Assembly: GCA_965231095.1 (NCBI GenBank)
Contig: OZ246416.1
Coordinates: forward strand, 1-48,937
Direction of reading: 5' to 3'
Origin: an uncultured Gammaproteobacteria bacterium
GTDB lineage: Bacteria; Patescibacteriota; Patescibacteriia; XYB2-FULL-38-15
DNA: 48,937 nucleotides
Below are positions 5,003 to 35,200 of the stretch, one piece after another (the stretch's first letter is position 1; the number at the start of each line of letters is the position of its first letter). The notes under the pieces are model-generated. The model ran no database searches and was not told the origin of the DNA. It saw only the letters and a list, made by a program, of their open reading frames with translations. The translations under genes and the position numbers were made by a program.

Positions 5003-8000
5003 ATGAAACCACACGAGAGAAAAATTTTAAAATTTCTTTTTTCCCTGTTTTTGCTCACGGGCGCGTTTTTGTTTGCGACAACGATTTTTGCTCAAGATTT
5101 TGGCGTGAATGAAGTGGGAAATGAAATTGCTCTGCCGACATCTGATCCGAGAGTGGTCGCGGCGCAAATTGTCCGCGTGGCATTGGGATTTTTGGGAATT
5201 GTGGCGGTGGCGATTGTGATTTATGGCGGTTTTGTTTGGATGACGGCCAGCGGGAATGAAGAGCAAATTAGCAAAGCCAAAAAGATTTTGACCAATGGCG
5301 TGATTGGTTTAGTTATTATTGTAATGGCTTTTGGCATTACCCAGTTTGTTTTAACAAGATTAATGGAAGTGACGGGAATTTCGGGCGGTCCGGGCGGGGG
5401 CGGCGGAGGTGGAGGCGGCGGCGGAGGCGGTTTGCCGTCTGATTCATTTATTGTCCGCGGAATTCAGCCAAATGGTTCTGTGCCGATTAGAAACGTGACC
5501 GTGCGAGTTGTTTTTAATAAAGCCGTAGATTCAACAACCCTGACAGATAATTTTAACGTGAGAAAAACGGCTGACGGAAGTTTAGTGGCCGGAACGGCGA
5601 GCGCTTCGGGAACAGTATTGGAATTTGTCCCCAATGCCGCGTGCCCTGCGCCGAATGGAGACAGAAAATGTTTTGACGGAGATACGGAATTTACCGTGGA
5701 AGTGACAACGAGCTTGCGGAGTACGGACGGAAGAAATTTAATTTGCGGAGGCCTCGCGCCAAATTGTACTGCCAATTTCACAACAGGAAACTTGGTTGAC
5801 GTAACCGGGCCGACGGTGGAGATAACTTATCCTGATCCGGGCGATTCGGTTTCTGCCGATGCTATAGTTTCGATTGAGGCAGAGGCCGCCGACGACGCGG
5901 GAATTTCTTATTTGGAATATTTTTCAAATGGCGGGACGCTCGGCACTGACGCACCGACGGGTCCAACGCCGCTCACTTATTCTTCAATTTTTGATTGGGA
6001 TACAACCGGCGTGACCTTAGGTTCACGGCACACGCTTACGGCAGAAGCTTTTGATATTGATTCAAATAATACTACGTCAGGCGGGGTGGATGTAATCGTT
6101 CGCGCGGCGCATTGTTTTAATGGTAGCCGCGATGCGGATGAAACAGACATTGATTGCGGCGGCGCGGATTGCGGAACCTGCGATGGCGGGTCATGTACTT
6201 CCGGAGCAGATTGCCGGGGTGGGACTTGCGTTGGCGGGGTTTGCCGAACATTACCGACAATTACCGGAGTTTCTCCAAACGACGGGGCAGTGGGAAATTA
6301 TGTGACAATTTTTGGCCAAGGTTTTGGCATCGTGCCCGGACAAGTTTATTTTAATAATGTTTTGGCCGGAGCGCCGGTTTGCCCGGCTTCCACGACTTGG
6401 CAGAATAATCAAATTATTGTAGTGGTTCCGGCCGGCGCGACCGATGGAGCGGTCAAGGTTGTTGTTCCTCCGCCGACAGGCGCGACCGCGGAGGAATATA
6501 CTGATCAAACCGATGATGAGCGCGGGCCGACTCTGCCGAATTTTGATGTTAATGATACAGCGCGGCCGGGAATTTGTTCTATCACGCCGGATTCCGGCGA
6601 ACCACGGAGTGATGTTGTTGTCGCCGGTACGCAATTTGGCGCGACGCAAGGAACAAGCGAAATTATTTTTGGCGGCACGCGAGCCGAGCGCGTCAGTCTT
6701 TGGACCGCCGCGAGCATTGGCGCGGTTGTCCCTCTTATTGCTCCGGCAACTGTTCCGGTGCAGGTTGTAGTTGGCGGACAAAATAGTAATCCAATTAATT
6801 TTCGAGTTGCCGCCACGGCCGATGCTCCAAGAATTTTGAGTTTCACTCCAACGCACGGACCGGTGGGCGAGTATGTGACAATTTTTGGCGCCAATTTTGG
6901 AGATACGACTGGACAAGTATTTTTTAAAGATGCGCTTGGCGCGGATCTTTTGGCTGATGTGAATTTCCCCGCGGCTTGCGGCGCTGATTGGTGGAGAAAT
7001 GATCAAATTATCGTAAAAGTTCCGACCGGCGCGGCGACAGATATTTTAAAAATTACAACCGGAGGCGCCTCGGGCGGCTTGTCTGATGATACAATCGATT
7101 TAACCACTTCAGATTTTACGGTTGATGCCGGCGCGGCCGGTCCGGGAATTTGTAAAATTACGCCGGACAACGGGCCCATTGATTTACCGGTCGTGATTAA
7201 TGGCGAGCGTTTTGGCGCGTCAGCTTTAGTTAATTTTTATCGGGCAACTCCCGCGACCGTTACTCCGACTGATGGCGCGCAAATTTCTACCTCGGTGCCA
7301 GTGGGATCCCAGACTGGTCCGGTTAATGTTACCTCCGGCGCCGTCACGGGCAACAGTGTAAATTTTACAGTTCAAGATTGTCGCGCGGGAGCAACGTGTT
7401 CGTCCGGAGAGCAATGCTGCCGCGATGGTAGTTGTGCGGTTGCTTGCGCCGCCGCCGCGGGGAAGGGATATTATTTTTGGCAATTTTCTACCGGTCAGCT
7501 TCCTGTTTATCCGCAGGTAGTTGAAAGTTGCAGCAATCCGCCGCCGCCTTCTCCGCCCTCGCCCTCGCCCTGGTCCGGACGAGATGGGGGAGAGAGGGTT
7601 TGCGTGAATGCCCTAGTAACAGCGCGGTTCACGACAAAAATAAATCCGGCGTCAGCTGGCAGTGAAAATATTTTAGTTGAAAGTTGTTCTGACCAAACTT
7701 GTGTCACAAGATCCGTGGTTGCCGGAGCAATTAGATTTTTGAGCGCCTCTTCCGCGCAAGATGGTTTTGAATTTACTCCTACGGGAAATTTAGCAAGAAA
7801 TAATTGGTATCAAGTAACTTTAAAAAGTGACGCGGCGCTTGGCACGGGAATAGAAAGTTGTCTTGGCGGCGCGGGCTGTCCGGATGGAGGATTTTTCTTG
7901 GATGGCGACCGAGATGGAGTTGAGGGTGGAGATTATGTTTGGAAATTTAAGACGCGCGACAGCGATGAAACTTGCGCCATTGGTTTAATTGGAGTTTTGC

Positions 8001-11000
8001 CTTATGAGATGACTTTAAATAGCGTGGATGCGACGCAAGATTATAACGGCCAATGTTACGCGGCCGGCGATGTTTGCGTGGCAGTAAATTGTAGCGGGTA
8101 CACTTGGGGTTGGTCTTCTTCTGACGTTTCGCGGGCTACGGTGGAAAATCGTGCGACCCCGGACACAAGAGCCACAGCTCGGGTGGAAACGGAAGTCGGC
8201 CGGCCAGTTAGAATTACCGGCGAAATTCCAAGCGAAAGAAAATCTGGTGTAGGAAATTTGACGATTGATTTTACTGATCCAAAAGTTGTGGATAAATGGC
8301 CGAATTGCAGCGACGCTTGTCTTAATGCAGAAATCGGCGCGAAATTTAATACCAGCATGAATCAGGTGAGCGTGGAGAGCGCGGCCAATGTCCATCTTTA
8401 TATTTGGAAATGCGGCAACGGCGTGCTTGAACCGGGCGAAGATTGCGACGATGGAAACGCGACCGCGGGCGATGGTTGCGGCGCGACTTGTTTGAACGAA
8501 GGATCAGACGCGCGCTATGGCGCTTATTGTCACAATAGCCGACGAGAAACCGGCGAAGATTGTGACGGTGAACCATTCCCGGCGCGTTGTAATCCAACCA
8601 CTTGTTTAAATTCCGGCAGCGACGGCGCGGCGGCAGTTTGCGGAAACGGATTGATTGAAGAAGGCGAAGATTGTGACGGTTCGCCATTTCCCTCTGGTTG
8701 CAACGCGACAAATTGTTTGAATGAAGGAACGCAAGCGCTCCAAGAAATTTCTTTGGTCGGAATTTCTTATAACAGCGTCGCTAAAAAAATAGTTATTAAT
8801 CCGACGCCAATTAGTCTCGCTCCGCGGACATATTTTTTACCAAATACTTATTATCGCGCAGTGATTTCCGATGCCGTTATGTCAACGAGCGGCGTTCATC
8901 TGACTGATTTAAATTATGATGCCACCTCTCCGGCGGGGAATGATTCTTATTCTTGGACTTTTAAAACTAAAGATGATACCAACCCTTGCGCGGTGGATCG
9001 CGTGGCAGTTGATCCGCAAAGCGCGATTTTAAATTTTATTGGTGAAACACAAAATTATTCTTCCACGCCATTCAGCAATCCCGATCTTTGCAGCCCGGCC
9101 GGCCAGCGGCTTGGGGCAATGGATTATAATTGGGGATGGACATCGCGCGACCCGGGCGTGGCCACAATTACAAATAATAACAATTATCCGTCTTGCGGAA
9201 ATGGTGTAAAAGAATTTGGCGAGGATTGCGACGATGGAAATATCGCGGCGGCCGACGGTTGCGGCGCAAGTTGTTTGAACGAAGGAACAATTGCGCCAAC
9301 TTGCGGCAATGGCGCGATTAATGTCGGTGAAGATTGTGACGATAGCAATACTCGTTCTGGCGATGGGTGTAATAGTACTTGTCGGCATGAAGGCTCTGTG
9401 GCCGGCGGGGGAGTTTGCGGCAATCGCGCGAAAGAGCGCGGGGAAGATTGCGATGACGGTAATGCTCCCGGCCCGGGTTGCAGTGCCACATGTTTAAATG
9501 AAGGAACGGTCACGGACAGCAGAATTGATCCTTATCAGACGGCCGAGGCGATTGATCTTGCGGTGGAAGACGTGGCCGCCGGGGTAAACTCCAGCACCAC
9601 AGAAATTTCAGCCGCGGCGGAAGGAAAATCCGACAGCGGTGATTTGACTTTGCGTTGCGGCGGGCAAGATTGTCGGGCGATTAGTCCGTCTTGTGTTTTG
9701 ACATCAAATATTTGCGCGGGAACAACTTCACAAGCTTGCACGAACGATGAGGATTGCACATTGGGCGTTGGCCGGAATACTTGCTGCTACTTTAAACCAA
9801 AAGTTAAAGATTGCGATCCCACTCGAGAAGGCGCGGTTGATTGCGATGATGGAGCGGTTAACGTTTGTCGCAATGCTAAAATTTCCGCGACTTTTGATCA
9901 GGTAATGGAAACAGCGAGCGTGACGGGAAATATTTTAGTGGTTAGTGATTACAGCGGCGTCTGTCCCGAAGGGGCAACGGCTCTGACCCTGTGGTCCGGG
10001 GAAGAAAAATCCGGCTGGAAGTTCGCGGAGAAAATAAAAGAGTGGCTGCCTGCGCCCATCGCGAAAATTTTGGCGAGACCGATTGCAAAAATAGAAAATG
10101 ATTTAGCAATTTTTGGAGAAGTTAAAAATTTTATCAATCAATTTAGCCAATCATTGTTTGGCTGGCCCGCGAGCGCGGCTCCGGCTTCGCCTTGGTGCGT
10201 TTGGCCCGGGACATCGTCATCGGTTGTTACGAGAGACGGAGACAATTTTGTGACCGAAGTGAGTTTTAGCCCGACCAAAGCGTTTGACCGGGGACAAACA
10301 TATTTTGTTTTGTTGTTGGGTGACAATCCTGCGACGCCGGAAATTGAAGGAATCAGAAACGCGAAAGGCGTGGCTTTGGGCGGAGGAATATTGCGCGGCG
10401 AATATCCGGCGCCTTACAGCGCGAGAGAAATTTATCAGTGGTTATTTAGCACGGGAAACGATATTTGTACTTTAAGTCAAGTGATCGTTGCTCCAGATAC
10501 GCGCGTTTTCACGCAAAACGGCGAGACACAAGAATATTTTGCGACGGCTCGTGACGCGCGGGGCAGGCGGATTTCTTCCCTCGCGGGAGTCTATGCCTGG
10601 GAGTGGGAGGATTGGTTATCAAATGATCCGACTGTGGTTGAATTGGATGTGTGGGGGACTTGTTCCGGAACATCGGGAGCGGCTTGCCGTAATGATGACG
10701 GCTGCGTTTTGGCGGGCGGGGTCTGCGAAACCAATAATAAACAAATTGCCACGGCGCAAAATAAAAATGGTGAAGCCAGAATTTTGGTTTCGGCAAAAAT
10801 TACGGCGGACACGATTTTGTCTCCACGGACCGTGGGGCGAGTTGCCTCCGGCGGAGCCGACGCCACGGTTTTACTTTGTGAAAATCCGTGGCCGGCCGAT
10901 TTTGGCGTGAGCGGAGGATTTATGGACACGGCGTTTAATTTTAAAACTTATTATTGCCGTGACCGGGGAGAGCTTGGCGCGGAGGATGACCTTCCGGAGG

Positions 11001-13666
11001 TGAGCGATCCGCCTGTCGCGCCGTCGGTTGTTTCGCCTGGAACTTCCAGTGATGTTTTGCTCAAAGAATATTTTATGTTTGTGGGAGGAAGTTATTGCAC
11101 GCTTTCTAAACTTCCCTGCAATACGGAAAATCCATGCGCCGATGGCGCCGGATCGTGCCAGAATTCTTCCGACGCGATTGGCATTAGAATTTATACCAAC
11201 AAAAATCATTTTGCCCTGACCGATTGGTATTTGGCTCAGGGATTCAGGCCGACGGCTCCGAGCGGCAAAACCGTTGATCAATATGAAGCAGTGGAAGACG
11301 GCCGGACAATTTATGTTTCCGCGGCAAATCAGCCGAGTGATGCGGATGGTTCTGGTTCCGATCCAGATATTTACACTAATGTTTATTTGATTTCATACAA
11401 TGAAGGTGCGAGCCAGGATACAATTGATATTTATAATCAATTGGTGGAAAATTGGAAATTTAATATTAATTTAGCGAATAATAAAGTTTGTAAAAATGCG
11501 GCGGGGGGATTGCCAGAGGGGGAGGCTGCAAATATTTCATGTTCAGCCGATTTGGACTGTCCCCAAACTCCGACGCAATTTTTGTGCGACGCGCCAAAAG
11601 ATAAATTGGCTCGCGACGTAAAACGGTTGCATGATTTGGAAAAAATAAAAGCGGCAGTGGAAAGATACCGTGTGACGCGCGGTTATCCGCCGAAATTGGA
11701 AGCGGGTTCGTATGTCCGAGGAATTTCTACAAGTAGATGGGATTCCTGGGCGGTTTTGGGCCAAGAACTCGGCGGCGGTCTGCCACAAGATCCATTAAAT
11801 AAATTTCAAGGATGTGTTGATCCCTATAGCGCGGATACTTGCTGGGACACGAGCGGAGAAACTTACCGCTGTCCGGGCTTGTCGCATATTTATCAATATC
11901 GTTATGAATCGGCTACGGGGTTTTATAACATTGGCGGTGATTTGGAATACAGGCTTGGAACAATGATAAATCCGAGTTGGAGTTGGTTTAGAGGTGCCGT
12001 CCCGACTTATATTGCTTATGAAAATGTTTGCGATGGTTCAACCTTTAGCGTGGGCGGAGTTTGTGGTGATGGAATCATAAATGCCAGTGAAGAATGCGAG
12101 CCGAGTCTGGCAAACACTTGTTCAAATGATCCAACGACTTTTTGCCGAAGCGATGTGGAATGCGGCGGGGGAACATGCCGGGTTAATGAAGAAAGTTGTA
12201 TTGCATCAAGCGGAGCTACCGGCCGCCGAAGCCGTACTTGTAATTTAGCCACCTGCCGTTTTAATGATTGGGGATCGTGCCTTGCCAGTTGCGGCAACGG
12301 GATTATTGATATTGGTGAAGCTTGCGATCGCGGTCCGGGCGGCGGAAGAATTCCGGGCGGCGGAACCCTGCCTACTAATGAATATCAATGTTCTACGGTT
12401 TGTAGAATGAGCGGTGGTTATTGCGGCGATGGAGTTTTGCAAAGTTCTTTTGGAGAAAGATGCGATGATGGAGCGGATAATGGCCGTTACGGTAGAAAAG
12501 CAGATGGCACGCCATATTGCGCGGCGGGTTGTGTTGGTTCGGCGCCATTTTGCGGAAACACGGTGACTGACGGTGGAGAAGAGTGCGACAGAAATTTACA
12601 AACAACGAGAGGTGTCTGTTATATGGGAGCGGCAAGGCCTGGTGATGAAAGTACTGCTAGCGGACCGTATACCTGTGAAAGTGACAGTGATTGTCCGGGC
12701 GGTTTGCGTTGCGCCGTTTGTTCCGACGCGGGTATTTATCAAAGGATTAGAACAAGTAATTGTTTGCCCAGCGGTCATAGTTCGGAGTGCCGATGGGGTA
12801 CATGGACTGCGTGTACTGTGGCCGGCGAATGCGGCAACAGCGTGGTGGAGGGCGGGGAGCAATGCGACGATGGAAATGATATAGCTACCGATACTTGCAA
12901 TAATTGTCAAAATTCTCGTTGCGGTGACGGCGCGGTGCGTGCAGGGATAGAATCGTGCGATTCGGGTGCGGCCAACGGAACGCCCTGCACGGCGTCGTAT
13001 GGTTCAACTTGTAATTATTGCAGTTCAAGTTGTACTTTGCGGACAGTCTCCGGCCTGACTTGCGGCGACGGGACAGTGAGCGGCGCGGAACAATGTGATA
13101 GTCGTCTGCCTCCATATCCGGCGAGTTGGCTTTGCGTTGATACTTCAAATCCTTGGGGCAAGCCGCTTGATCTTGCCACACCAAGTTGCAGTCCGTCATC
13201 TTGCGCGATTTCCTGCGCGACCGGCCGGGCTTGTGACAATAGAAAGTATGGATCTGGCGGAGCAATTAATCCCGACGCGGACGGAGACGGAATTTTTGAC
13301 GCCTGCGACCCGAATGATAATAGTAATACTGATGGTTGTATGGACGACGCGACAAATTGCGCGAGAGTTGATTTGAGAATTACTGCGGATGCAGGCGATT
13401 TCTTTCAGGTTTATATTGATGGCCACCTTGCTAATACATCGGAACGTTCCGTCATGGGAACTTTAATGGCAAGTATAGATACTCTTTCAAGGGGGCTGCA
13501 TAATTTGCGCATTGTCTATGCTTCAGGAACTCCGTCGGGTATTTATGATGTTGACTTTTACTATGACTCACCTTCAAGAGCGGGAGTTGACTTCGGGGTT
13601 GCTGATTATAGATTGCCACTCGTGAATTTTGGTGATGAAGTAAGAGTTGATTTTACTGTTAGATAA
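5003..13666 (+). CDS. Giant 2887-aa surface protein: VirB2-like pilin, Ig-like and IPT/TIG domains, 13 DUF4215-like Cys repeats, GspG/type IV pilin-like segment
   Basis: Uninterrupted ORF; pilin head paralogous to the upstream gene; TIG-like ITGVSPNDGAVGNYVTIFGQGFG repeats; CGNG...GEDCDDG repeats; RDVKRLHDLEKIKAAVERY motif. Confidence 0.8.
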   Translation: MKPHERKILKFLFSLFLLTGAFLFATTIFAQDFGVNEVGNEIALPTSDPRVVAAQIVRVALGFLGIVAVAIVIYGGFVWMTASGNEEQISKAKKILTNGVIGLVIIVMAFGITQFVLTRLMEVTGISGGPGGGGGGGGGGGGGLPSDSFIVRGIQPNGSVPIRNVTVRVVFNKAVDSTTLTDNFNVRKTADGSLVAGTASASGTVLEFVPNAACPAPNGDRKCFDGDTEFTVEVTTSLRSTDGRNLICGGLAPNCTANFTTGNLVDVTGPTVEITYPDPGDSVSADAIVSIEAEAADDAGISYLEYFSNGGTLGTDAPTGPTPLTYSSIFDWDTTGVTLGSRHTLTAEAFDIDSNNTTSGGVDVIVRAAHCFNGSRDADETDIDCGGADCGTCDGGSCTSGADCRGGTCVGGVCRTLPTITGVSPNDGAVGNYVTIFGQGFGIVPGQVYFNNVLAGAPVCPASTTWQNNQIIVVVPAGATDGAVKVVVPPPTGATAEEYTDQTDDERGPTLPNFDVNDTARPGICSITPDSGEPRSDVVVAGTQFGATQGTSEIIFGGTRAERVSLWTAASIGAVVPLIAPATVPVQVVVGGQNSNPINFRVAATADAPRILSFTPTHGPVGEYVTIFGANFGDTTGQVFFKDALGADLLADVNFPAACGADWWRNDQIIVKVPTGAATDILKITTGGASGGLSDDTIDLTTSDFTVDAGAAGPGICKITPDNGPIDLPVVINGERFGASALVNFYRATPATVTPTDGAQISTSVPVGSQTGPVNVTSGAVTGNSVNFTVQDCRAGATCSSGEQCCRDGSCAVACAAAAGKGYYFWQFSTGQLPVYPQVVESCSNPPPPSPPSPSPWSGRDGGERVCVNALVTARFTTKINPASAGSENILVESCSDQTCVTRSVVAGAIRFLSASSAQDGFEFTPTGNLARNNWYQVTLKSDAALGTGIESCLGGAGCPDGGFFLDGDRDGVEGGDYVWKFKTRDSDETCAIGLIGVLPYEMTLNSVDATQDYNGQCYAAGDVCVAVNCSGYTWGWSSSDVSRATVENRATPDTRATARVETEVGRPVRITGEIPSERKSGVGNLTIDFTDPKVVDKWPNCSDACLNAEIGAKFNTSMNQVSVESAANVHLYIWKCGNGVLEPGEDCDDGNATAGDGCGATCLNEGSDARYGAYCHNSRRETGEDCDGEPFPARCNPTTCLNSGSDGAAAVCGNGLIEEGEDCDGSPFPSGCNATNCLNEGTQALQEISLVGISYNSVAKKIVINPTPISLAPRTYFLPNTYYRAVISDAVMSTSGVHLTDLNYDATSPAGNDSYSWTFKTKDDTNPCAVDRVAVDPQSAILNFIGETQNYSSTPFSNPDLCSPAGQRLGAMDYNWGWTSRDPGVATITNNNNYPSCGNGVKEFGEDCDDGNIAAADGCGASCLNEGTIAPTCGNGAINVGEDCDDSNTRSGDGCNSTCRHEGSVAGGGVCGNRAKERGEDCDDGNAPGPGCSATCLNEGTVTDSRIDPYQTAEAIDLAVEDVAAGVNSSTTEISAAAEGKSDSGDLTLRCGGQDCRAISPSCVLTSNICAGTTSQACTNDEDCTLGVGRNTCCYFKPKVKDCDPTREGAVDCDDGAVNVCRNAKISATFDQVMETASVTGNILVVSDYSGVCPEGATALTLWSGEEKSGWKFAEKIKEWLPAPIAKILARPIAKIENDLAIFGEVKNFINQFSQSLFGWPASAAPASPWCVWPGTSSSVVTRDGDNFVTEVSFSPTKAFDRGQTYFVLLLGDNPATPEIEGIRNAKGVALGGGILRGEYPAPYSAREIYQWLFSTGNDICTLSQVIVAPDTRVFTQNGETQEYFATARDARGRRISSLAGVYAWEWEDWLSNDPTVVELDVWGTCSGTSGAACRNDDGCVLAGGVCETNNKQIATAQNKNGEARILVSAKITADTILSPRTVGRVASGGADATVLLCENPWPADFGVSGGFMDTAFNFKTYYCRDRGELGAEDDLPEVSDPPVAPSVVSPGTSSDVLLKEYFMFVGGSYCTLSKLPCNTENPCADGAGSCQNSSDAIGIRIYTNKNHFALTDWYLAQGFRPTAPSGKTVDQYEAVEDGRTIYVSAANQPSDADGSGSDPDIYTNVYLISYNEGASQDTIDIYNQLVENWKFNINLANNKVCKNAAGGLPEGEAANISCSADLDCPQTPTQFLCDAPKDKLARDVKRLHDLEKIKAAVERYRVTRGYPPKLEAGSYVRGISTSRWDSWAVLGQELGGGLPQDPLNKFQGCVDPYSADTCWDTSGETYRCPGLSHIYQYRYESATGFYNIGGDLEYRLGTMINPSWSWFRGAVPTYIAYENVCDGSTFSVGGVCGDGIINASEECEPSLANTCSNDPTTFCRSDVECGGGTCRVNEESCIASSGATGRRSRTCNLATCRFNDWGSCLASCGNGIIDIGEACDRGPGGGRIPGGGTLPTNEYQCSTVCRMSGGYCGDGVLQSSFGERCDDGADNGRYGRKADGTPYCAAGCVGSAPFCGNTVTDGGEECDRNLQTTRGVCYMGAARPGDESTASGPYTCESDSDCPGGLRCAVCSDAGIYQRIRTSNCLPSGHSSECRWGTWTACTVAGECGNSVVEGGEQCDDGNDIATDTCNNCQNSRCGDGAVRAGIESCDSGAANGTPCTASYGSTCNYCSSSCTLRTVSGLTCGDGTVSGAEQCDSRLPPYPASWLCVDTSNPWGKPLDLATPSCSPSSCAISCATGRACDNRKYGSGGAINPDADGDGIFDACDPNDNSNTDGCMDDATNCARVDLRITADAGDFFQVYIDGHLANTSERSVMGTLMASIDTLSRGLHNLRIVYASGTPSGIYDVDFYYDSPSRAGVDFGVADYRLPLVNFGDEVRVDFTVR

Positions 13667-19357: not shown

Positions 19358-19438
19358 ATGGACTTGAAAATTTATTTAGAGTTTCTCGAATCAATGTTCT
19401 TAAAGGTTATCTTGTTATTTTATTCGCCTAATTTATGA
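19358..19438 (+). CDS. Candidate 26-aa leader peptide overlapping the nrdD start (not in ORF track)
   Basis: AAGGAGG 7 nt before ATG 19358; MDLKIYLEFLESMFLKVILLFYSPNL; stop TGA overlaps the nrdD ATG (ATGA). Confidence 0.35.
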   Translation: MDLKIYLEFLESMFLKVILLFYSPNL

Positions 19439-21468
19439 TTTATAACCAGAATAAAATTACCCAGATAAGAAAAAGGGATGGTCGTATTGTTGATTTTGAT
19501 CAGGGGAAAGTTACGATAGCGATCGGAAAGGCAATAGAGGCGACCGGAGAAAAGGATGAAAAATTGGCGAATCGACTTTCAGACCAGTTGATGAAAGATT
19601 TGAACAAGAAATTCCATCCGCGTTCAATCCCGGCCGTGGAAGAGATTCAAGATCTTGTTGAAGAAGTTTTGATTAGAGCCAGACAAATCAGAGTGGCCAA
19701 GGCGTATATTATCTATCGCGACCAACATGCTAAAATTCGTGAGTTGAATGCTTTAGTTGATGGAAATCAATTGATGGGAAATTATTTGGATAAATTGGAT
19801 TGGTTGGTTCGGGAAAACAGTAACATGGCTTTTTCTCTGCAGGGTTTGAATAATCATGTCAGTTCAGCGATAAGTTCTCATTATTGGCTGCAGAAAGTTT
19901 ATCCGCCGGAAATCAGAGATGCTTATGTGGAAGGAGATTTTCATATTCATGATTTACAAATTTTAGCGGCATATTGTTGCGGCTGGGATCTACACGACTT
20001 GTTGGCGCGCGGTTTTGGCGGAGTTATGGGAAAAATAGAGTCAAAACCGGCAAAACATTTGAGGAGTGCTCTTGGGCAGATTGTTAATTTCTTTTATACT
20101 CTGCAGGGTGAAGTGGCGGGCGCGCAAGCTTTTGCCAATTTTGACACCCTTCTCGCTCCTTTTATTCGTTACGATGGGTTGACCTATAAAGAAGTGAGGC
20201 AGGCTCTGCAGGAATTCGTTTTTAATGTTAATGTTCCGACCCGCGTTGGTTTTCAAACGCCGTTTACCAATATCACCATGGATCTTGCTCCGCCAAAAAA
20301 TATGGCGGATGAGGCAGTGATTGTTGGCGGCGTTCCTCAAAAAGAAAAATACGGAGAATTCCAGGTAGAAATGGATATGTTAAATCAGGCTTTCGCTGAA
20401 GTGATGATTGCCGGCGACGCCAAGGGCAGAGTTTTCTCTTTTCCGATTCCAACATATAATGTCACACCGGATTTTAATTGGGAGAAGAAAGAGTTTGATC
20501 CTATCTGGGAAATGACGGCTAAATATGGCATTCCTTATTTTGCCAATTTTGTAAATTCCGATATGAAGGCCGAGGACGCGCGTTCAATGTGCTGCCGTCT
20601 GCGGCTTGATAATCGTGAATTAAGAAAACGCGGCGGCGGACTTTTCGCGGCGAATCCTCTGACCGGTTCAATTGGTGTCGTCACAATCAACTTGCCGCGT
20701 ATTGGTTATCTTTCGAAAACCAGAAAAGAATTTTTTGATCGCCTGGCGCGATTGATGGATTTGGCTAAAAAAAGTTTGGAAATTAAAAGAGAGGTGATTG
20801 AAACTCTAACCAGCAAGGGGCTTTATCCTTATTGCCGCCATTATCTTGCGCCAATAAAAGAGAGGTTTAATGAATATTGGAGAAATCATTTTAATACTAT
20901 CGGTTTGATCGGGATGAATGAAGCGTGTCTTAATTTTTTAGGTAGAAACATCGCCACGGAAGAGGGCCAGGATTTTGCTAAATCGGTTCTTGATTTTATG
21001 AGAGAGAGATTGATGGACTACCAGCTTGAAACAAACAATCTTTACAATCTTGAAGCAACGCCGGGCGAAGGCACGAGCTACAGCTTGGTGAAAAAAGATA
21101 AAGCAAAGTATCCGGATATTATTGTCGCCAACGAAAAAGCTCATCGAGAAAAAGGCGCGACTCCGTATTATACAAACTCAACTCATTTGCCGGTTGGTTT
21201 TACGGATGATTACTTTGAAGCTTTGCGTTTGCAAGATGATCTGCAGACGCGGTATACTGGAGGTACGGTGCTTCATGGATTTATTGGCGAAAGATTGCCC
21301 AACGGCGATGCGGCAAAAATACTTGTCAGAAAAATCGCCAGTCAATTTCATCTTCCTTACTTTTCTCTCACACCGACTTTCAGCGTTTGCCCAAAGCACG
21401 GGTATATGGCTGGCGAACATCCGTTCTGCCCGAAGTGTGACGAAGAGATTGGCCACAAAAATTCATGA
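19435..21468 (+). CDS. nrdD: Class III (anaerobic) ribonucleoside-triphosphate reductase, catalytic part with ATP cone, lacking the glycyl-radical tail
   Basis: IRKRDGRIVDF ATP cone, YCCGW, SMCCRLRLD finger loop, GSIGVVTINLPR, ends at CPKH...CPKC Zn site. Confidence 0.93.
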   Translation: MIYNQNKITQIRKRDGRIVDFDQGKVTIAIGKAIEATGEKDEKLANRLSDQLMKDLNKKFHPRSIPAVEEIQDLVEEVLIRARQIRVAKAYIIYRDQHAKIRELNALVDGNQLMGNYLDKLDWLVRENSNMAFSLQGLNNHVSSAISSHYWLQKVYPPEIRDAYVEGDFHIHDLQILAAYCCGWDLHDLLARGFGGVMGKIESKPAKHLRSALGQIVNFFYTLQGEVAGAQAFANFDTLLAPFIRYDGLTYKEVRQALQEFVFNVNVPTRVGFQTPFTNITMDLAPPKNMADEAVIVGGVPQKEKYGEFQVEMDMLNQAFAEVMIAGDAKGRVFSFPIPTYNVTPDFNWEKKEFDPIWEMTAKYGIPYFANFVNSDMKAEDARSMCCRLRLDNRELRKRGGGLFAANPLTGSIGVVTINLPRIGYLSKTRKEFFDRLARLMDLAKKSLEIKREVIETLTSKGLYPYCRHYLAPIKERFNEYWRNHFNTIGLIGMNEACLNFLGRNIATEEGQDFAKSVLDFMRERLMDYQLETNNLYNLEATPGEGTSYSLVKKDKAKYPDIIVANEKAHREKGATPYYTNSTHLPVGFTDDYFEALRLQDDLQTRYTGGTVLHGFIGERLPNGDAAKILVRKIASQFHLPYFSLTPTFSVCPKHGYMAGEHPFCPKCDEEIGHKNS

Positions 21469-21523
21469 ATAGTTAATAAAGAAAGATTATAATAAAATAA
21501 TAATTAATAATAACAATAAGCAT

Positions 21524-21673
21524 ATGACGGAGGAAAAAGAGTTAAAGCGTCAGCCGTGCGAAATTTATTCCCGCGTGGTCGGATATCTTCGGCCGGTAAG
21601 CCAATGGAACGACGGGAAGCAGGCGGAATTCGGAGAGAGAAAAACTTATGATAAGCAGTTGATGGAAGAGTAA
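21524..21673 (+). CDS. nrdD: Free-standing NrdD glycyl-radical domain, 49 aa (not in ORF track)
   Basis: Manual translation MTEEKELKRQPCEIYSRVVGYLRPVSQWNDGKQAEFGERKTYDKQLMEE contains the RVVGY glycyl-radical loop. Confidence 0.9.
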   Translation: MTEEKELKRQPCEIYSRVVGYLRPVSQWNDGKQAEFGERKTYDKQLMEE

Positions 21674-21732
21674 AAATTTGGTAGAATGAGATATGAAAAC
21701 ATGATAGCTTTTGTTATCATGTTTTTATATGA

Positions 21733-22485
21733 ATGAGAAATAAACTGATAATGGAAAATTTTATGATGATTGGCGGTCTGCAAAAATTGACTCTTATTGA
21801 TTATCCCGGCAAAATTGCTTGCACGGTTTTTACGGTTGGCTGTAATTTTCGCTGTCATTTTTGCCATAACCCGGAACTGATTAATCCGGCTAAATTTAAG
21901 TTATCGGAAATTATTGAAGAAAAAGTTTTTTTTGATTTTTTAAATTCGCGACACGGACTTTTAGACGGTGTTTGTATTACAGGCGGGGAGCCGACGCTTT
22001 ACCCCGATTTGCCGGAATTTATAAAAAAAATTAAGGAGCTGGGGTTTTTAGTAAAACTGGATACCAACGGAACAAATCCGGAAATGATCGGAGTGCTTGT
22101 GGCGGAAAAATTAATTGATTATGTTGCGATGGACATTAAAACAAAACTCAAAACGCAAAACTCAAAATTCAAAACTTACGATGAAGTTGTGGGAGTAAAA
22201 GTGGATTTATCAAATATTGAAAAGAGCATTAAAATCATTATGCAAAGTGGAATTGATTATGAATTTCGGACGACGATGGTGCCAAAGCTGCATACCGAGG
22301 AAGATATCATGCAAATTGCCGAAGAGCTCCGCGGCGCGAAAAAATATTATTTGCAGCAATTTAGATCCGGAGGGAAAATTTTTGATCCGGAATTCTATGA
22401 TGTAAAACCGTACCCAATAGAATTTTTAAAAGATTTACGTGAAAAAATAAAAGGAAATTTTGGAATTTGTGAGATTAGAGATTAG
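21733..22485 (+). CDS. nrdG: Anaerobic RNR activating enzyme (radical SAM); true start probably 21763 or 21766
   Basis: LIDYPGKIACTVFTVGCNFRCHFCHN (CxxxCxxC), ITGGEPT, KLDTNG, YEFRTT. Confidence 0.92.
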   Translation: MRNKLIMENFMMIGGLQKLTLIDYPGKIACTVFTVGCNFRCHFCHNPELINPAKFKLSEIIEEKVFFDFLNSRHGLLDGVCITGGEPTLYPDLPEFIKKIKELGFLVKLDTNGTNPEMIGVLVAEKLIDYVAMDIKTKLKTQNSKFKTYDEVVGVKVDLSNIEKSIKIIMQSGIDYEFRTTMVPKLHTEEDIMQIAEELRGAKKYYLQQFRSGGKIFDPEFYDVKPYPIEFLKDLREKIKGNFGICEIRD

Positions 22486-22529: not shown

Positions 22530-22844
22530 ATGACTCCGCTTGAGAGAAGAGTTTTAATATTGATAAAGAAAATCCCGCGAGGGAAAGTCTCAACTTACGG
22601 CGAAATTGCGAGGATTTTAAAGACCGGGCCGCGGGCGGTAGGAAACGCGCTTCATAAAAATCCTCATCTTATAAAAATTCCTTGCCATCGGGTGGTAAAA
22701 TCAGATGGAAGTTTAGGAGGGTATGTTGGCGGGGGAGAAAAGAAGATGGGGTTGCTTAAAAAAGAGGGGATATTGTTCAAAAAAAATAAAATAATAAATT
22801 TTGTACAAGTAATTTATAAATTAAACAAAAAAGTAAATAATTAA
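22530..22844 (+). CDS. MGMT family O6-alkylguanine DNA alkyltransferase (DNA-binding domain only)
   Basis: IPRGKVSTYGEIA, PRAVGNAL, active-site PCHRV. Confidence 0.88.
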   Translation: MTPLERRVLILIKKIPRGKVSTYGEIARILKTGPRAVGNALHKNPHLIKIPCHRVVKSDGSLGGYVGGGEKKMGLLKKEGILFKKNKIINFVQVIYKLNKKVNN

Positions 22845-29290: not shown

Positions 29291-32200
29291 ATGTTGACAA
29301 ATAATCTTAGAAAACCAAAACGGACTATTTGCACAATTGTTTTGCTTTGTTTTGTTTTGACTCAAGTTATTTCCGGCGTCTTTTTGTACGCTCGTCCGGC
29401 CACGGCGCAGCTCGTTGTCTCTGATCCGGTGACCGGCGCCCAGACAACGGTTAAAAATATAAAAGATTTTTTAAAAATTTTAGTGGTGAACGCCGGGACC
29501 ATGGCCTTGATTAATGCCGCGTCGCGCTTCATGCAAAAAATCTCCTATGATCTGGCCGTGAGTTTGGCTTCGGGCGGGAGTGGGCAAATGCCGCTTTTTT
29601 CCACAGAAGGTTGGGGGGATTATTTGGCCAGTGCCGGGTTGGACGCGGCCGGAGAATTTATCGGGAGTTTTGGCGATATGGTTGGCGTTAATTTTTGCGC
29701 GCCGCCAAATCCCAGAGTTGGATTAGCTTTGCAATTACAATTATCTCAAACTTACGCGGAAGGATTGCCGCCGCCAACTTGCGAATGGTCTTCAATCCAA
29801 TCAAATTGGGAGTCGTTTATCGCCGAAGTTCAGACGGAAGATTTCCTGCGCGAGGCGGCTTCGCAATTTCAAATCGGCTATGGCGCGGGAACTGATCTTG
29901 ATCTGGCCATCAGCACTTATGTCGGGGCTTTTAACGCGGAACGAAGCGCTTCAGATACCGCGGCCTTAACGAGAGAAGAAGGACAAGGATTTTTGCCGGC
30001 TTCGGAATTAATCAGCGGAGACATCAAAACGCCGTCTGAAGTTATCAGGCAAACTTCTCAAATCCAAACCGAAGGGCCGGTTGAAGCGGAGCAATTAAAG
30101 TGGAGCCTTTCCGGCCAGGCGCTTTCCGCCGGAGCCCAAGGAATTTTGACCATGATGGCTTCAACTTTTGTCAGTACTCTTCTTTCCAAAACAATGGAAA
30201 GAATTTTCAGCAAAGGCATGTACTCGCTGGCTGATTTATTTCCCGAAGGAGAAGACGCGACCTCGGAAGAGGGGACAGCTTGGGGCGGGCGCCGCGCCGC
30301 GGAATTGGCTTTTGCCGATTTACTTGTGCCGCAAATTAAAGAAAGTGGCGCTTATGATATTTTATCCGACTTTATTGTTTGCCCGGATAAATTTAAAGGG
30401 ACAAACAATTGCGTGATGGACGGACGGTTTGAAGCGGCAGTTCGGCAAGCGCAAACTGGAGCGCCGCTTACGGTGGCTGCGGCGATTGAAGGAAAATATT
30501 TGGATGAAAAGTGGGCGTTGATTCCGCCGTCTGATTTAGCCGCGAACCAAGATCCGCTTTGTTACACAAGAGGTTTTTGTTATAGCAATTTAGTAAAACT
30601 CCGCAAAGCGAGAATCATTTCCATTGGTTGGGAAATCGCGGCGCAAATCTCTCCCACAACAAGTTATGTCACCTTGAAAGAAGTGGTTGACCGTTTTTAT
30701 GATTGTAATGCCGCGGGCGAGGCCGATAATGAGCATCTCTATTGCCACTTGATTGACCCGAACTGGATCCTGAAAGCGCCGGCCGAGCAATGCCGGGCGC
30801 GAGTTTACGGACCGCTCTTACAAACTACGGAAAATAGTTTTCGCCAAGAAACTTGTGTTGATTCGCCGACCTGTCTTGCCGAAGACGACCAAGGAAATTG
30901 CGAAGGCGGTTGGGGGTATTGCACCAGAGAAAAAAATATCTGGCGGTTAGACGGAGATCAATGCGACGCGCAGTATGATACTTGCAAACTCTTGCGGCGA
31001 AGCGACGGGCAAAATGTCGCTTATGTGACAAATACGGTTGATTACGGCCCGCCTTGCAATGCCGACGATATCGGCTGCCGCTGGTATTCCGACCGGCAAT
31101 CAAAAGTCGGAGATGATTGGCTTTGGCAAGACGCGCTTACCGGTTCGGGAACCGCCGCCCGCCGGACTGATAGAATTTTCTTTAATAAAAACATCGCCCA
31201 GTGCGACGAGCCGGGTTGTAATGAATTTTTACGGACAACTTCGGACACAAAATTAAATTTAGTCACCAATAGCAGTTTTGAAAATTTTATTGACAATCCC
31301 GCTTACGCGACCGACACTTTCGAAGATTGGCCAAATAACGGTGAAGCATCAAACGACACGTATTTCGGCCGAACGGCTCTGCGTTTTGTTGGACTATTTT
31401 CCCGAGACATCACCTTGGAAGAGCCCAAAGCCGGCCGGACTTTTGTTTTATCTTTTTATGCCAAAAATGTCAGCGATACGGAAACTTGTAATGGAATAGT
31501 ATCTTTTGAGGGACTGGCAGAAGATTTGCCGGCGGGTTCTGCTTATGAGCGGGTTACCATAGAAAAAACCGCCGCGGGCGTTGGCCGAACTTTGAATTTC
31601 CGTTTTGGCGGAGCGGGGAATTGTTTAATTGATGCCGTGCAGCTTGAAGAAGGAACTTTTGCTTCGCAATACCATGAGGGTTGGGGAAGAACCGGCGAAG
31701 CGTTATATTTAAAAACCGCGCCGGATTATTATTCTTGTTATGATTACACTTCGGTCGGCGCTTTGGATAAAACAAACGACGCCCAGCAGTGCGGAAATTT
31801 TGCCAAGGCCTGCGAAGAAAAAGATGTGGGCTGCGAAGAGTATCGTCCGACAAACGGCGATCCGTCGGTGCCGGGCGTGGCCAATTATCCGGACGATTAT
31901 TGTCCGGCCGAGTGCGTTGGTTATCAAACTTTTAAACAAGTGGCGACTGATTTTGAACAAGATAAATTTCCGGTTTATTTTATTCCAACCACCGGCCGAA
32001 CTTGCAACGCCGCGGACGCGGGCTGCGATCAATTTACCAGTTTGGAAACTGAAGCCGTAGCCAATTTCAGTTATGTTCGCCGTTGCGAAAAACCGGGCGC
32101 GACAGGAGCGGCTTTCTACACTTGGGAAGGAAGTGATACGGCCGGTTATCAGATAAAAACTTGGAATTTAAAAATGGCGCAAAGTTCCGTGGTGCCAACT

Positions 32201-35200
32201 ACGCCGGACGGTTCCGACCCAGCTGGCGGCAGACCGCCATGTACTGCGTTAATGGCTGATGGTTTGTCTTGTGACGATACTTCGCTTGTCGGCCTTTGCA
32301 CCAAAGCCGACACACTTATCAACCCCGACTGCCGTGAATTTTACGACGCGGCCGGTTTAAAACATTATCGCCTGTATTCCAAGACGATTGTGGTCTCTGA
32401 CGATTGCCATCCGTACCGCAAAACTCTTTCTACCGCCGGCGATTGCGGAGCTTCCGGCGGAAGATGGGACGCGGTAAAAAGTGAGTGCGCTTACAATGTT
32501 TATCTGCCGGAATCCAGAAGCTGCAGCAACGAGGCCGTCGGCTGCCGGGCTTATCGCGGAAACGCCGGAGCAAATACCGCCGTGGTTTTGAATGATAATT
32601 TTGATGATTCATTGATCGCCAATTGGGACGAAGCAGATACCCCGACCATAAGTTCTGAATCACTGGTAGTCGGCGGAAAATCTTTGTCTTTTAACGCCGG
32701 AGAAACAATAGACAAAAGTCTTTCCACTTCAATTCGCCAGGGCGGCCTTTATACTCTATCTTTTTGGGCCAAGGGTGCGAGCCGTCTTGATATAAAATTT
32801 TTGGGTGCCGATTCTAACGATAAAGTATTCAGCTCGGCAACCAAAAGCCCGACCAACCTTTCTTTTGACTGGCGATATTTTTCGCTCGGTCCGGTTTATG
32901 TTGACTGGGGCGTCGCCGGCGGAGGAGAAACTTTACGAATTTCCGCGGTGGGCGGAGGAACGCCGGCTTACATTGATAATATTATTTTGCGTGAAGTTCA
33001 ATCATATATTTATGTAGTGAAAAATTCTTGGACTACGCCAATTTCTTGCGACCGGTCTTTTGCGATTGATACTTCAATCACCGAGGCCGCGGCTTGTGCG
33101 ACTTCCGGCGGTTCTTGGAGTGCCGACCGCGGAGAGTGTGTTCTTTCCGCGCTTTTGCCGCAAGCCCAGCTTGGATGCGCGAGTTATTTTGACCGCGCGA
33201 ACGGCCTGCATTATCTAAAATCTTTCTCGCGGCTTTGCTCGCCGGACGTGGCCGGTTGCGCGAAATTGTTGAAGACAAATAATAATGCCTCAACTGCCGA
33301 GGAAACTTACAATACAGAAAACGACAGCGATCCGTCGCTTTCAGACGAAGAAAGATTGTCGGACAACGTGACGATCCCGGCTGATTCTTTCTCTTATATT
33401 GTGGTGGATGACGCGTATGAATGCGCGGCGCAAAATAAAGGTTGCGCCGAATTTGGTTCGCCGACGCTTGATGCCGCAGGAAATGCGAAAGTTGATGCCG
33501 ATGGCAAACCGCAATACAGTACGGTAAATCTTCTGGCCAATCCAACGCTCTATAATTCCGCGACCGGCCGAATTCTCTGCCAAGTCGGATTCCTGGCCTG
33601 CGAAGAATATACCACAACCGACGGCGGAAAATTATATTTTAAAAATCCGGAGCCGCGACTTTGCGAATGGAAAGATAATGTAAATCTTAGCGGGCAAAAT
33701 GTTTCCGGATGGTTTAAAAAACAAGAAAAAGCATCTGATCCACTTTTGCCTTGCGACCCGGCAAATTTCAATGGCGGATATTATAATATTTGGAAAAATG
33801 GCGACACGAAATGTAATTTGCCATATGTCTGCCAAGACGCCGCGGGTTGCGCTTGTACAGTTGGAACGGCCGGCGCGACCGGTGCGCCCGGCACAACTTG
33901 CACGGTTTCTTACAATAAACGTTCTTGCCCGTACTCCGGCTGGGTTGGGGAGTGCATTCCGCAAGCTGACCAATGCACAAAATTTGTTGATCCCGCGGAC
34001 ACGACAGAAGATCCTCTGGGCGCGGCATATTATTACATTAATAATGACAAAATAAGTTCAGGAAATTGCAATGGCATGGCTTCGCAAAAAAGCGGATGTG
34101 TGTTGTTTAATGATACAAGCAATCCGCAGTTGGATAAAAATGCCAACGCGACGTATTGGGCTTCGGAAGCAAAAGTCAGCGATCCGGGTGGGCTCGTAGC
34201 ACCAATTGATTGTCGGCCGGACGACGCGAGTTGCGGTAAAAAATGTATTAAAACGGTGGCTGGCGGAGGTTATTCATATTATCGTTATTGTCGAGACCGA
34301 AATGATTGCGATATTACGGAACGTGCCGACGATGATCCAGCGGCTCGTGACCAATGCGTGGTAGTTTTGTCGCGATTGCGTAACGACTCCAATCGTCTTG
34401 TCCAAGTTCGCCGCGACCGCGTCTGCGGAGAATGGCTGACGTGCTCGGGCACCAACCATACTTTTGATCCGCAAACAGGCCGAGAAAAAGTTTTGTGCGA
34501 ACAAATTGATGTTTGCAATCAATATGCAAAAGTTGGCCAGGCGACAGCGCAATGCACAAATATTCTTGCCCCAGAAGAAGTTGAAACCAACCGAAAACTT
34601 TTGAGCAAAGAATTATATGTTTCTCGCGATACGACTTTCAAGGGAATGGATTACTCCGGAGATTCTATTTATAACCAGTATCAAGCGCAAAATTTACGTA
34701 GCGTAAACGTTGGTACAGTTGAAAGCCCGGTTCCTGCTTTGGCTTTTATTGAGGACAGATGTTTTGACGCCGCCGGTCTGCTAGATGACTGTGGAACGCG
34801 TCCGGACGGTTTTTGTGAGAGCGACGTAAATGATTCCCCGTGTGGAGATAATGGTAAATGTTTTAATCATATTTGCGTTACAAATTTTCGCGGAGATCCT
34901 TTTGTTCCGGGTGCTGTAAAAATTTTTGACGCGACAAACAGAGAAAATATTTCTTGCCGCGCTTATCCCGAGCAGAGCTCGCCATTCCCCAATAGCGTGG
35001 TTAAAAACTGGACACCCTTGAGTAAAAAACCCGGTTTCACCGGAGCAAATATCTGTGAAAACAGAGAAGCTTGTGATTGTTCTTATTTGAAAGCGAGTTA
35101 CGGCAGCGGCGCAGTGACAAAATATTTTGATGAAGAAAAGGATCCCTTGCCTTCAGTTTGTGTTGGTGGTAAAGATGCCGGGAAAACTTGCACAGATCTT

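Follow-up and report, generated by a model that had tools for sequence, protein, structure and literature searches.

This analysis concerns a class III ribonucleotide reductase (RNR) locus on a 48,937-nucleotide contig (OZ246416.1 of GenBank assembly GCA_965231095.1, forward strand) from an uncultured bacterium that is deposited as a gammaproteobacterium and has a GTDB lineage in the Patescibacteriota (XYB2-FULL-38-15). This whole stretch is referred to here as the window. Its nrdD gene encodes a reductase body without a glycyl-radical loop, and the loop is found on a separate open reading frame (ORF) of 49 codons. The gene order is ftsA, ftsZ, nrdD, the 49-codon ORF, nrdG, an ogt-like gene, an htrA-like gene and a release factor gene, all on the plus strand. 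The most similar loci (96-93% protein identity) carry the label Patescibacteria or Candidatus Falkowbacteria, and the sequencing runs that match are groundwater metagenomes.

The nrdD body carries an ATP-cone and matches Pfam family NRDD (PF13597) over positions 1-529 of 562 (E 8e-182). It also matches NCBIfam model PRK08270 from position 2 to position 650 of 684, with a score of 1036 bits against a cut-off of 548. By this profile comparison, the chain stops before the glycyl-radical loop (RVxGY). The top 36 structure matches of an AlphaFold2 (AF2) model of the body are all class III RNR (NrdD), with template modelling (TM) scores of up to 0.73. Strongly conserved motifs of the body include the ATP-cone, the NxN flap (ENSNM), the SMCCR finger loop and the zinc ribbon. 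SMCCR is the counterpart of the SCCR motif in Thermotoga maritima NrdD (PMC4493059). The zinc ribbon aligns with the CxxC...CPxC of Prevotella copri NrdD, and metal binding is predicted for it; the site in the window is of the Cys3His type, not Cys4. The reading frame ends nine residues past the last zinc cysteine.

What the body lacks is found on the small ORF, which lies in a different reading frame from nrdD. Its 49-residue product covers Pfam NRDD positions 531-562 (E 2.3e-10) and PRK08270 positions 649-683. The body and the small ORF thus abut exactly in these family profiles, which would not be expected by chance. On T. maritima NrdD, the body corresponds to residues 100-610 and the small protein to residues 614-646, which include the radical glycine Gly621 (PMC4493059). 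The cut thus falls in the short linker that joins the zinc ribbon to the strand preceding the glycine loop. No match of the small protein to the Pfam family Gly_radical (PF01228) was found, and NRDD is its only Pfam match. These profile matches bear out the first-pass annotation of this DNA, which had proposed that nrdD ends after its zinc site and that the loop resides on a separate 49-residue protein.

As had also been proposed, nrdG comes next, starting 59 nucleotides downstream of the small gene. Its product matches TIGR02495 (NrdG2) with 222.9 bits against a cut-off of 131. A domain specific to the NrdG proteins of split systems was looked for and none was found; NrdG length and C-terminus are alike in split and contiguous systems.

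Table 1. Features of the divided nrdD locus, in window coordinates
Feature	Position	Strand	Basis
nrdD body, class III RNR catalytic subunit without radical loop, 677 residues, stop TGA	19435..21468	+	Pfam, NCBIfam, AF2
ATP-cone, body residues 10-99	19462..19731	+	PF03477, E 1e-20
Finger-loop cysteines C386-C387, motif SMCCR	20590..20595	+	Invariant in 62 aligned bodies
Zinc ribbon (predicted metal site) C652-P-K-H655 ... C665-P-K-C668	21388..21438	+	Four residues invariant in aligned bodies
Body tail motif D-E-E-I-G-H, consensus D-x-E-[IM]-G-[YF]	21439..21456	+	Specific to split bodies
AT-rich spacer between body and small gene, 55 nucleotides, ~11% G+C	21469..21523	.	No Rfam match
Gene for putative 49-residue glycyl-radical subunit (MTEEKELKRQPCEIYSRVVGYLRPVSQWNDGKQAEFGERKTYDKQLMEE)	21524..21673	+	End of NrdD profiles, purifying selection
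Radical loop C12-E-I-Y-S-R-V-V-G20-Y-L-R-P24; Gly20 codon 21581-21583	21557..21595	+	Conservation, T. maritima alignment
nrdG, radical S-adenosylmethionine (radical-SAM) activase, 250 residues, CX3CX2C at 21841-21864	21733..22485	+	TIGR02495, Pfam Radical_SAM

The division is not peculiar to one assembly. Colinearity over positions 21000-22000 is seen in contigs of the source run and of three runs from a different study, which contain a strain about 97% identical. No joint that would remove the spacer occurs in them; the comparison is of assembled contigs, not raw reads. Changes between the strains fall at third codon positions in nrdD, and at third positions or in the variable C-terminal tail in the small gene.

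A survey of the best 80 NrdD loci, with one genome per species, extends this picture. The order body, small gene, nrdG is found in every assessable locus of the split clade, that is, in 55 Patescibacteria, in the window and in two DPANN genomes, one from Aenigmatarchaeota and the other from Micrarchaeota. One locus with its small gene under a run of N and another at a contig edge were left out of this count. Among split loci with a downstream match, nearly all have nrdG immediately after the small gene. The survey also includes 22 more distant relatives (63-67% identity) with a contiguous NrdD that reads CPxC-x3-CEVYSRVVGYLRP. These come from Smithella and other Syntrophaceae, Nitrospirae, one locus labelled Candidate Phyla Radiation (CPR) and one Aenigmatarchaeota locus. 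At one split locus (L026:1734-6256), the body and small gene occur as a tandem pair, with two bodies, two identical 62-residue small genes and a single nrdG. This could be a true duplication or an assembly repeat.

Comparison of the 58 small genes reveals purifying selection. Differences at the three codon positions number 16656, 13514 and 35867, and are highest at the third. Nine core residues (R, C, S, R, G, P, K, E and R) are invariant in these genes, and the loop residues C, S, R, G and P are unchanged across the 58 loci.

Stand-alone homologues of the 49-residue protein form at least 462 clusters (90% identity) in public protein sets. Among the 120 matches listed, the proteins are 41-83 residues long, all of stand-alone size. 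Their sources include Patescibacteria, Microgenomates, Magasanikbacteria, Aenigmarchaeota and Micrarchaeota. A few already carry the name 'anaerobic ribonucleoside-triphosphate reductase' or 'hypothetical protein'. The expectation of the first-pass annotation that pipelines would miss the gene is therefore not borne out. A profile search of 1.84 billion representatives at 50% identity returned 4979 matches, and 149 of the best 150 are stand-alone proteins of 48-115 residues. Members of the family abound in groundwater and sediment metagenomes. Body homologues give the same picture: 119 of the best 120 are of the split type and one is contiguous.

Several unusual relatives turned up in these searches. 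One split-type body (P0197, 846 residues) has about 170 extra residues and matches the NRDD family in two stretches, a break that makes an insertion likely, possibly of an intein or mobile element. In a 66-residue small protein (P0241), the radical loop is tandemly duplicated (...EVYSRVVGYLSPVSHWNEGKKEEW twice). Two further stand-alone proteins of 98 and 115 residues (P0338 and P0285, at L081:750-1046 and L082:389-736) combine a CxxC...CxxC zinc ribbon of their own with an NrdD-type radical loop. Their contigs are about 1 kb long and their neighbours are not NrdD; one neighbour weakly matches a phage family of unknown function. These two proteins may exemplify a second type of stand-alone NrdD radical domain.

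In a neighbour-joining tree, the split loci of Patescibacteria form one clade, whose sister is the contiguous CPR-labelled sequence. The two DPANN split loci pair with each other; contiguous forms fall into a clade of their own. The DPANN bodies end with an identical FCPKCDEEIGY tail, which argues for a single origin of the split, probably followed by transfer between Patescibacteria and DPANN.

Split bodies and small proteins share features at their new ends. After the last zinc cysteine, 119 of the best 120 body homologues have D-x-[ED]-x-G, in nearly all cases D-x-E-[IM]-G-[YF]. The sole contiguous homologue among them carries radical-loop sequence in place of this motif, which is also missing from the 22 contiguous loci. 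A typical split body thus ends in CPxC-D-x-E-[IM]-G-[YF] followed by a variable acidic tail; the ending is 8-52 residues long, with a mean net charge of -3. The window has the only body of the 120 that reads IGH, with H where others have Y or F. Small proteins begin with about 11 residues that end in K-R-Q-x-C and have a mean net charge of +1.5, an N-terminus absent from the contiguous relatives. These acidic tails and basic N-termini are the likeliest candidates for docking elements, which would have been acquired after the fission. MAFFT repeatedly pairs the 'IGY' of the body tail with the 'VGY' of the loop. The tail motif may be left over from a duplication of the junction, or it may serve as a docking strand or plug; a three-residue likeness cannot settle whether it is a relic.

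Cysteines are frequent at the ends of some of these proteins. Of 120 small proteins, 34 have a cysteine-containing end (CESC, CACN, SCC, CPC and similar), and some bodies end in CSTC, CPEC, ECC or CCK. Loci with such tails are L007-L009, L015, L016, L022-L024, L026, L033, L040 and L063; the proteins of the window have none. The tails recall the C-terminal cysteine pairs that act as redox shuttles in class I and II RNRs.

The length of the DNA between body and small gene is not conserved. Distances from the body stop codon to the small-gene ATG range from 4 to 294 nucleotides, in all three relative frames and after TAA, TAG or TGA. Every small ORF of the split loci has its own ATG and the conserved N-terminus. 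Even close relatives of the window, with bodies 95-96% identical, have spacers of 31 and 207 nucleotides. The extra length of the second comes from a GC-rich insertion of about 150 nucleotides (L001, ~6035-6185) into an otherwise AT-rich spacer; the insertion contains a hairpin (GAAAAAGAGTTTACTCTTTTTC) and is absent in the window, L002 and L003. Neither the window spacer nor the long spacer of L001 has an Rfam match. Within the window, Rfam matches only the 3' part of a tRNA gene at positions 1-58, truncated by the window edge.

The first-pass annotation had pointed to the AT-rich spacer of 55 nucleotides and to a TATAAT within it. Both are present, the latter at 21488-21493, but its reading as a promoter fares less well. 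TATAAT occurs in 24 of the 58 spacers, yet TTATAA (26) and TAATTA (24), hexamers of the same A3T3 composition, are equally common. Its distance from the ATG varies from 9 to 236 nucleotides. Nine spacers are shorter than 40 nucleotides, the shortest being 4, and several are too short to hold a promoter. A consensus scan found no strong promoter site in the spacer, and Shine-Dalgarno-like motifs are rare genome-wide. A conserved promoter in the spacer is thus not supported.

Taken together, the locus very probably reflects a genuine and ancient gene fission that produced a class III RNR made of two polypeptides. From the genes we infer how such an enzyme would work. The body would supply the ATP-cone, the zinc ribbon and a catalytic barrel that contains the cysteine finger loop. 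The 49-residue protein would contribute in trans a beta-strand, a C-terminal surface segment and, reaching into the barrel, the glycine loop; in an ordinary NrdD these parts are the last ~35 residues of one chain. Body and small protein would assemble non-covalently, and NrdG would take a hydrogen from Gly20 of the small protein. From there the radical would follow the canonical route, first to the finger-loop cysteine and then to the substrate.

What is known of the canonical enzyme makes this arrangement mechanically plausible. Canonical NrdD keeps its glycine buried, and activation requires the C-terminal domain to move outwards (PMC4493059). Cryo-electron microscopy and hydrogen-deuterium exchange have characterized the radical domain of NrdD as a highly mobile unit that leaves the barrel (PMC11226230). 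A domain that already behaves in this way could presumably operate without a covalent link. The small protein would then be an obligate radical-bearing subunit rather than an optional spare, because it carries the only radical loop available to the adjacent NrdD. The likeness to GrcA/YfiD that the first-pass annotation had noted is a fair lead, but the 49-residue protein is not a spare, since its body has no loop to replace.

Some results weigh against a two-subunit enzyme. AF2, run on the fused sequence with 61 body homologues, folded the body and left residues 677-726 undocked, with predicted local distance difference test (pLDDT) values of 28-33; the small part had no alignment rows in this run. 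A single-sequence prediction of the fused body and small protein (pLDDT 33) was uninformative. RNA runs that could bear on co-transcription were sought and none was found. The survey covered individual loci, and the genomes may also carry a second, complete RNR elsewhere.

If the fission is genuine, the reason for it is a separate matter. It may have been neutral: a single event, such as a short insertion or duplication in the linker past the zinc ribbon, could be tolerated since the radical loop binds tightly to the barrel in any case, and the split was then locked in without any benefit. This explanation is a strong contender, although we stop just short of calling it probable. The cut lies in a short linker between two structural units, and other split RNRs function, such as the class II NrdJa/NrdJb (PMC9669993). 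There is a single split clade plus the DPANN pair rather than many independent origins, and the pairing of IGY with VGY by MAFFT hints at a duplicated junction. Strong conservation of the tail motif and the complementary charges of body tail and small N-terminus are harder to reconcile with pure neutrality. However, they point to later adaptation to the split state, not to a benefit of the split itself.

Alternatively, the split may be adaptive. Oxygen cuts the chain at the radical glycine, so that a detached 49-residue carrier could be lost alone while the 677-residue body is reused after taking up a fresh small protein activated by NrdG. The small protein would in that case be a consumable, exchangeable cofactor, activated by NrdG on or off the body and replaced after oxygen cleavage. 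We regard both the adaptive origin and this exchangeable role as tentative, on the doubtful side, although repair of oxygen damage by swapping a 49-residue piece is plausible by analogy. For pyruvate formate-lyase, rescue by a spare part, GrcA/YfiD, is established (PMC8683613, PMC13450708). The split has been kept across a very large clade of small genomes in which new conserved motifs were gained, and the metagenomic abundance of the family also speaks for a benefit. In contrast, there is no conserved separate promoter that would yield an excess of the small subunit, and long retention is also expected of a neutral fission once both halves are essential. Locked-in neutral fission is at least as likely as oxygen repair.

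Other explanations deny that the two proteins form one enzyme, or that there are two proteins. The small protein might be a GrcA-like spare for a full-length NrdD encoded elsewhere, with the adjacent body inactive. The search covered individual loci, which leaves some room for this idea, but it is improbable. None of the catalytic or allosteric motifs is missing from the body, and all are strongly conserved; each of the best 80 NrdD loci comes from a different assembly, and the small gene always lies between body and nrdG.

A single chain could also be restored by frameshifting, translational bypass, an intron or split-intein splicing. Phage T4 nrdD contains an intron, and spacers of about 50 nucleotides are reminiscent of bypassing in T4 gene 60. 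The nrdD genes of jumbo phages are likewise split by introns (PMC12880540). We give such mechanisms almost no credence here, since spacers of 4-294 nucleotides in frames 0, 1 and 2 are not conserved and have no Rfam match, and the small ORF always starts at its own ATG with a conserved N-terminus. Frameshifting or bypass would be expected to conserve spacing and frame relation, and the split loci conserve neither. A split intein would need about 100 residues of N-intein and about 35 of C-intein; the body tail (at least 8 residues, 9 in the window) and the small N-terminus (~11) are far too short. Recoding of UGA was also considered and rejected: readthrough of the TGA adds only eight codons before a TAA, and relatives stop with TAA or TAG. 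The variable spacers, frames and stop codons exclude frameshifting, bypassing, introns and sequencing error alike. A sequencing or assembly error or a pseudogenized nrdD, for which an indel could be invoked from a single window, is scarcely conceivable when about 60 independent genomes share the split with varying spacer lengths and frames, the small gene is under purifying selection and the assemblies of a second study are colinear.

If the two-polypeptide reading is correct, a radical loop can work without a covalent tether, as a widespread mini-protein of about 46-50 residues. Such a protein would be a minimal natural substrate for the long-standing question of how activases reach a buried glycine, and would permit a direct test of oxygen-damage repair by subunit exchange. 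Should it also prove to be an exchangeable cofactor, a class III reductase could be repaired at about one-fifteenth of the protein cost. The division into catalytic and radical-storage subunits typical of class I would then exist within class III, which is of interest for RNR evolution because a separate radical subunit is a hallmark of class I. There are practical consequences as well. Annotation treats the bodies as complete enzymes and labels the small genes fragments or hypothetical proteins, so that metabolic reconstructions of Patescibacteria and DPANN, and RNR phylogenies filtered by length, may mis-score split enzymes.

Other parts of the window hold a few features of separate interest. 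Directly after nrdG, positions 22530-22844 encode a 104-residue protein that has only the DNA-binding domain of methylguanine-DNA methyltransferase, with a PCHR active-site motif. A giant ORF of 2887 residues (5003-13666) carries TIG, Big_5, Big_7 and DUF4215 domains and an N-terminal T4SS-pilin (type IV secretion system) domain. Another, of 2753 residues (29291-37552), has no Pfam match.

To our knowledge, characterized glycyl radical enzymes all hold the radical glycine on the catalytic chain. According to a June 2026 review, small spare-part proteins are known among glycyl radical enzymes for the formate lyases only (PMC13450708). Split class II RNRs (PMC9669993) and intron-split phage nrdD genes (PMC12880540) have already been described. 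A full-text literature search found no class III enzyme with a separate gene for the radical loop, although its coverage was incomplete and an earlier description is possible.

The nearest relative of the split system is canonical NrdD/NrdG, especially the T. maritima type (RNRdb NrdDh, with the SCCR finger loop; PDB 4COI and 4U3E). Both have an ATP-cone, an ENSNM flap, a barrel, a CC finger loop, a zinc ribbon, SRVVGY and an adjacent NrdG2. The split system differs in that the loop and C-terminal segment (~35 residues) are on a separate polypeptide, and in the D-x-E-[IM]-G-[YF] tail of the body, the basic N-terminus of the small protein and the Cys3His zinc site.

Small size and a free-standing state are also found in the autonomous glycyl radical cofactors of pyruvate formate-lyase, GrcA/YfiD of E. 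coli and Y06I of phage T4. There too, a small protein that bears a loop completes a large barrel without a working one. However, GrcA is a 127-residue spare homologous to the C-terminus of pyruvate formate-lyase, and its partner has a loop of its own. The 49-residue protein is homologous to the NrdD C-terminus only and carries the sole loop.

Resemblances to other reductases are more distant. The class II NrdJa/NrdJb of Pseudomonas aeruginosa is also encoded by two adjacent genes with a C-terminal module on the second, but it depends on B12, has no glycyl radical, and its second piece is large, with an IscU-like domain and a zinc finger. In class I RNRs, a stable radical likewise resides on a subunit apart from the catalytic barrel. 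That subunit is a ferritin-like metalloprotein which relies on long-range transfer, whereas the glycine of the mini-protein would be expected inside the barrel. The nrdD genes of T4 and the Jug jumbo phages are interrupted at the DNA level too, but those interruptions are mostly removed by RNA splicing; the split nrdD of Patescibacteria has no intron and encodes two proteins. The split system thus departs from canonical NrdD in one defining feature, a loop on the same chain, and shares the other defining features that could be checked in sequence, while the defining features of GrcA are absent from it.

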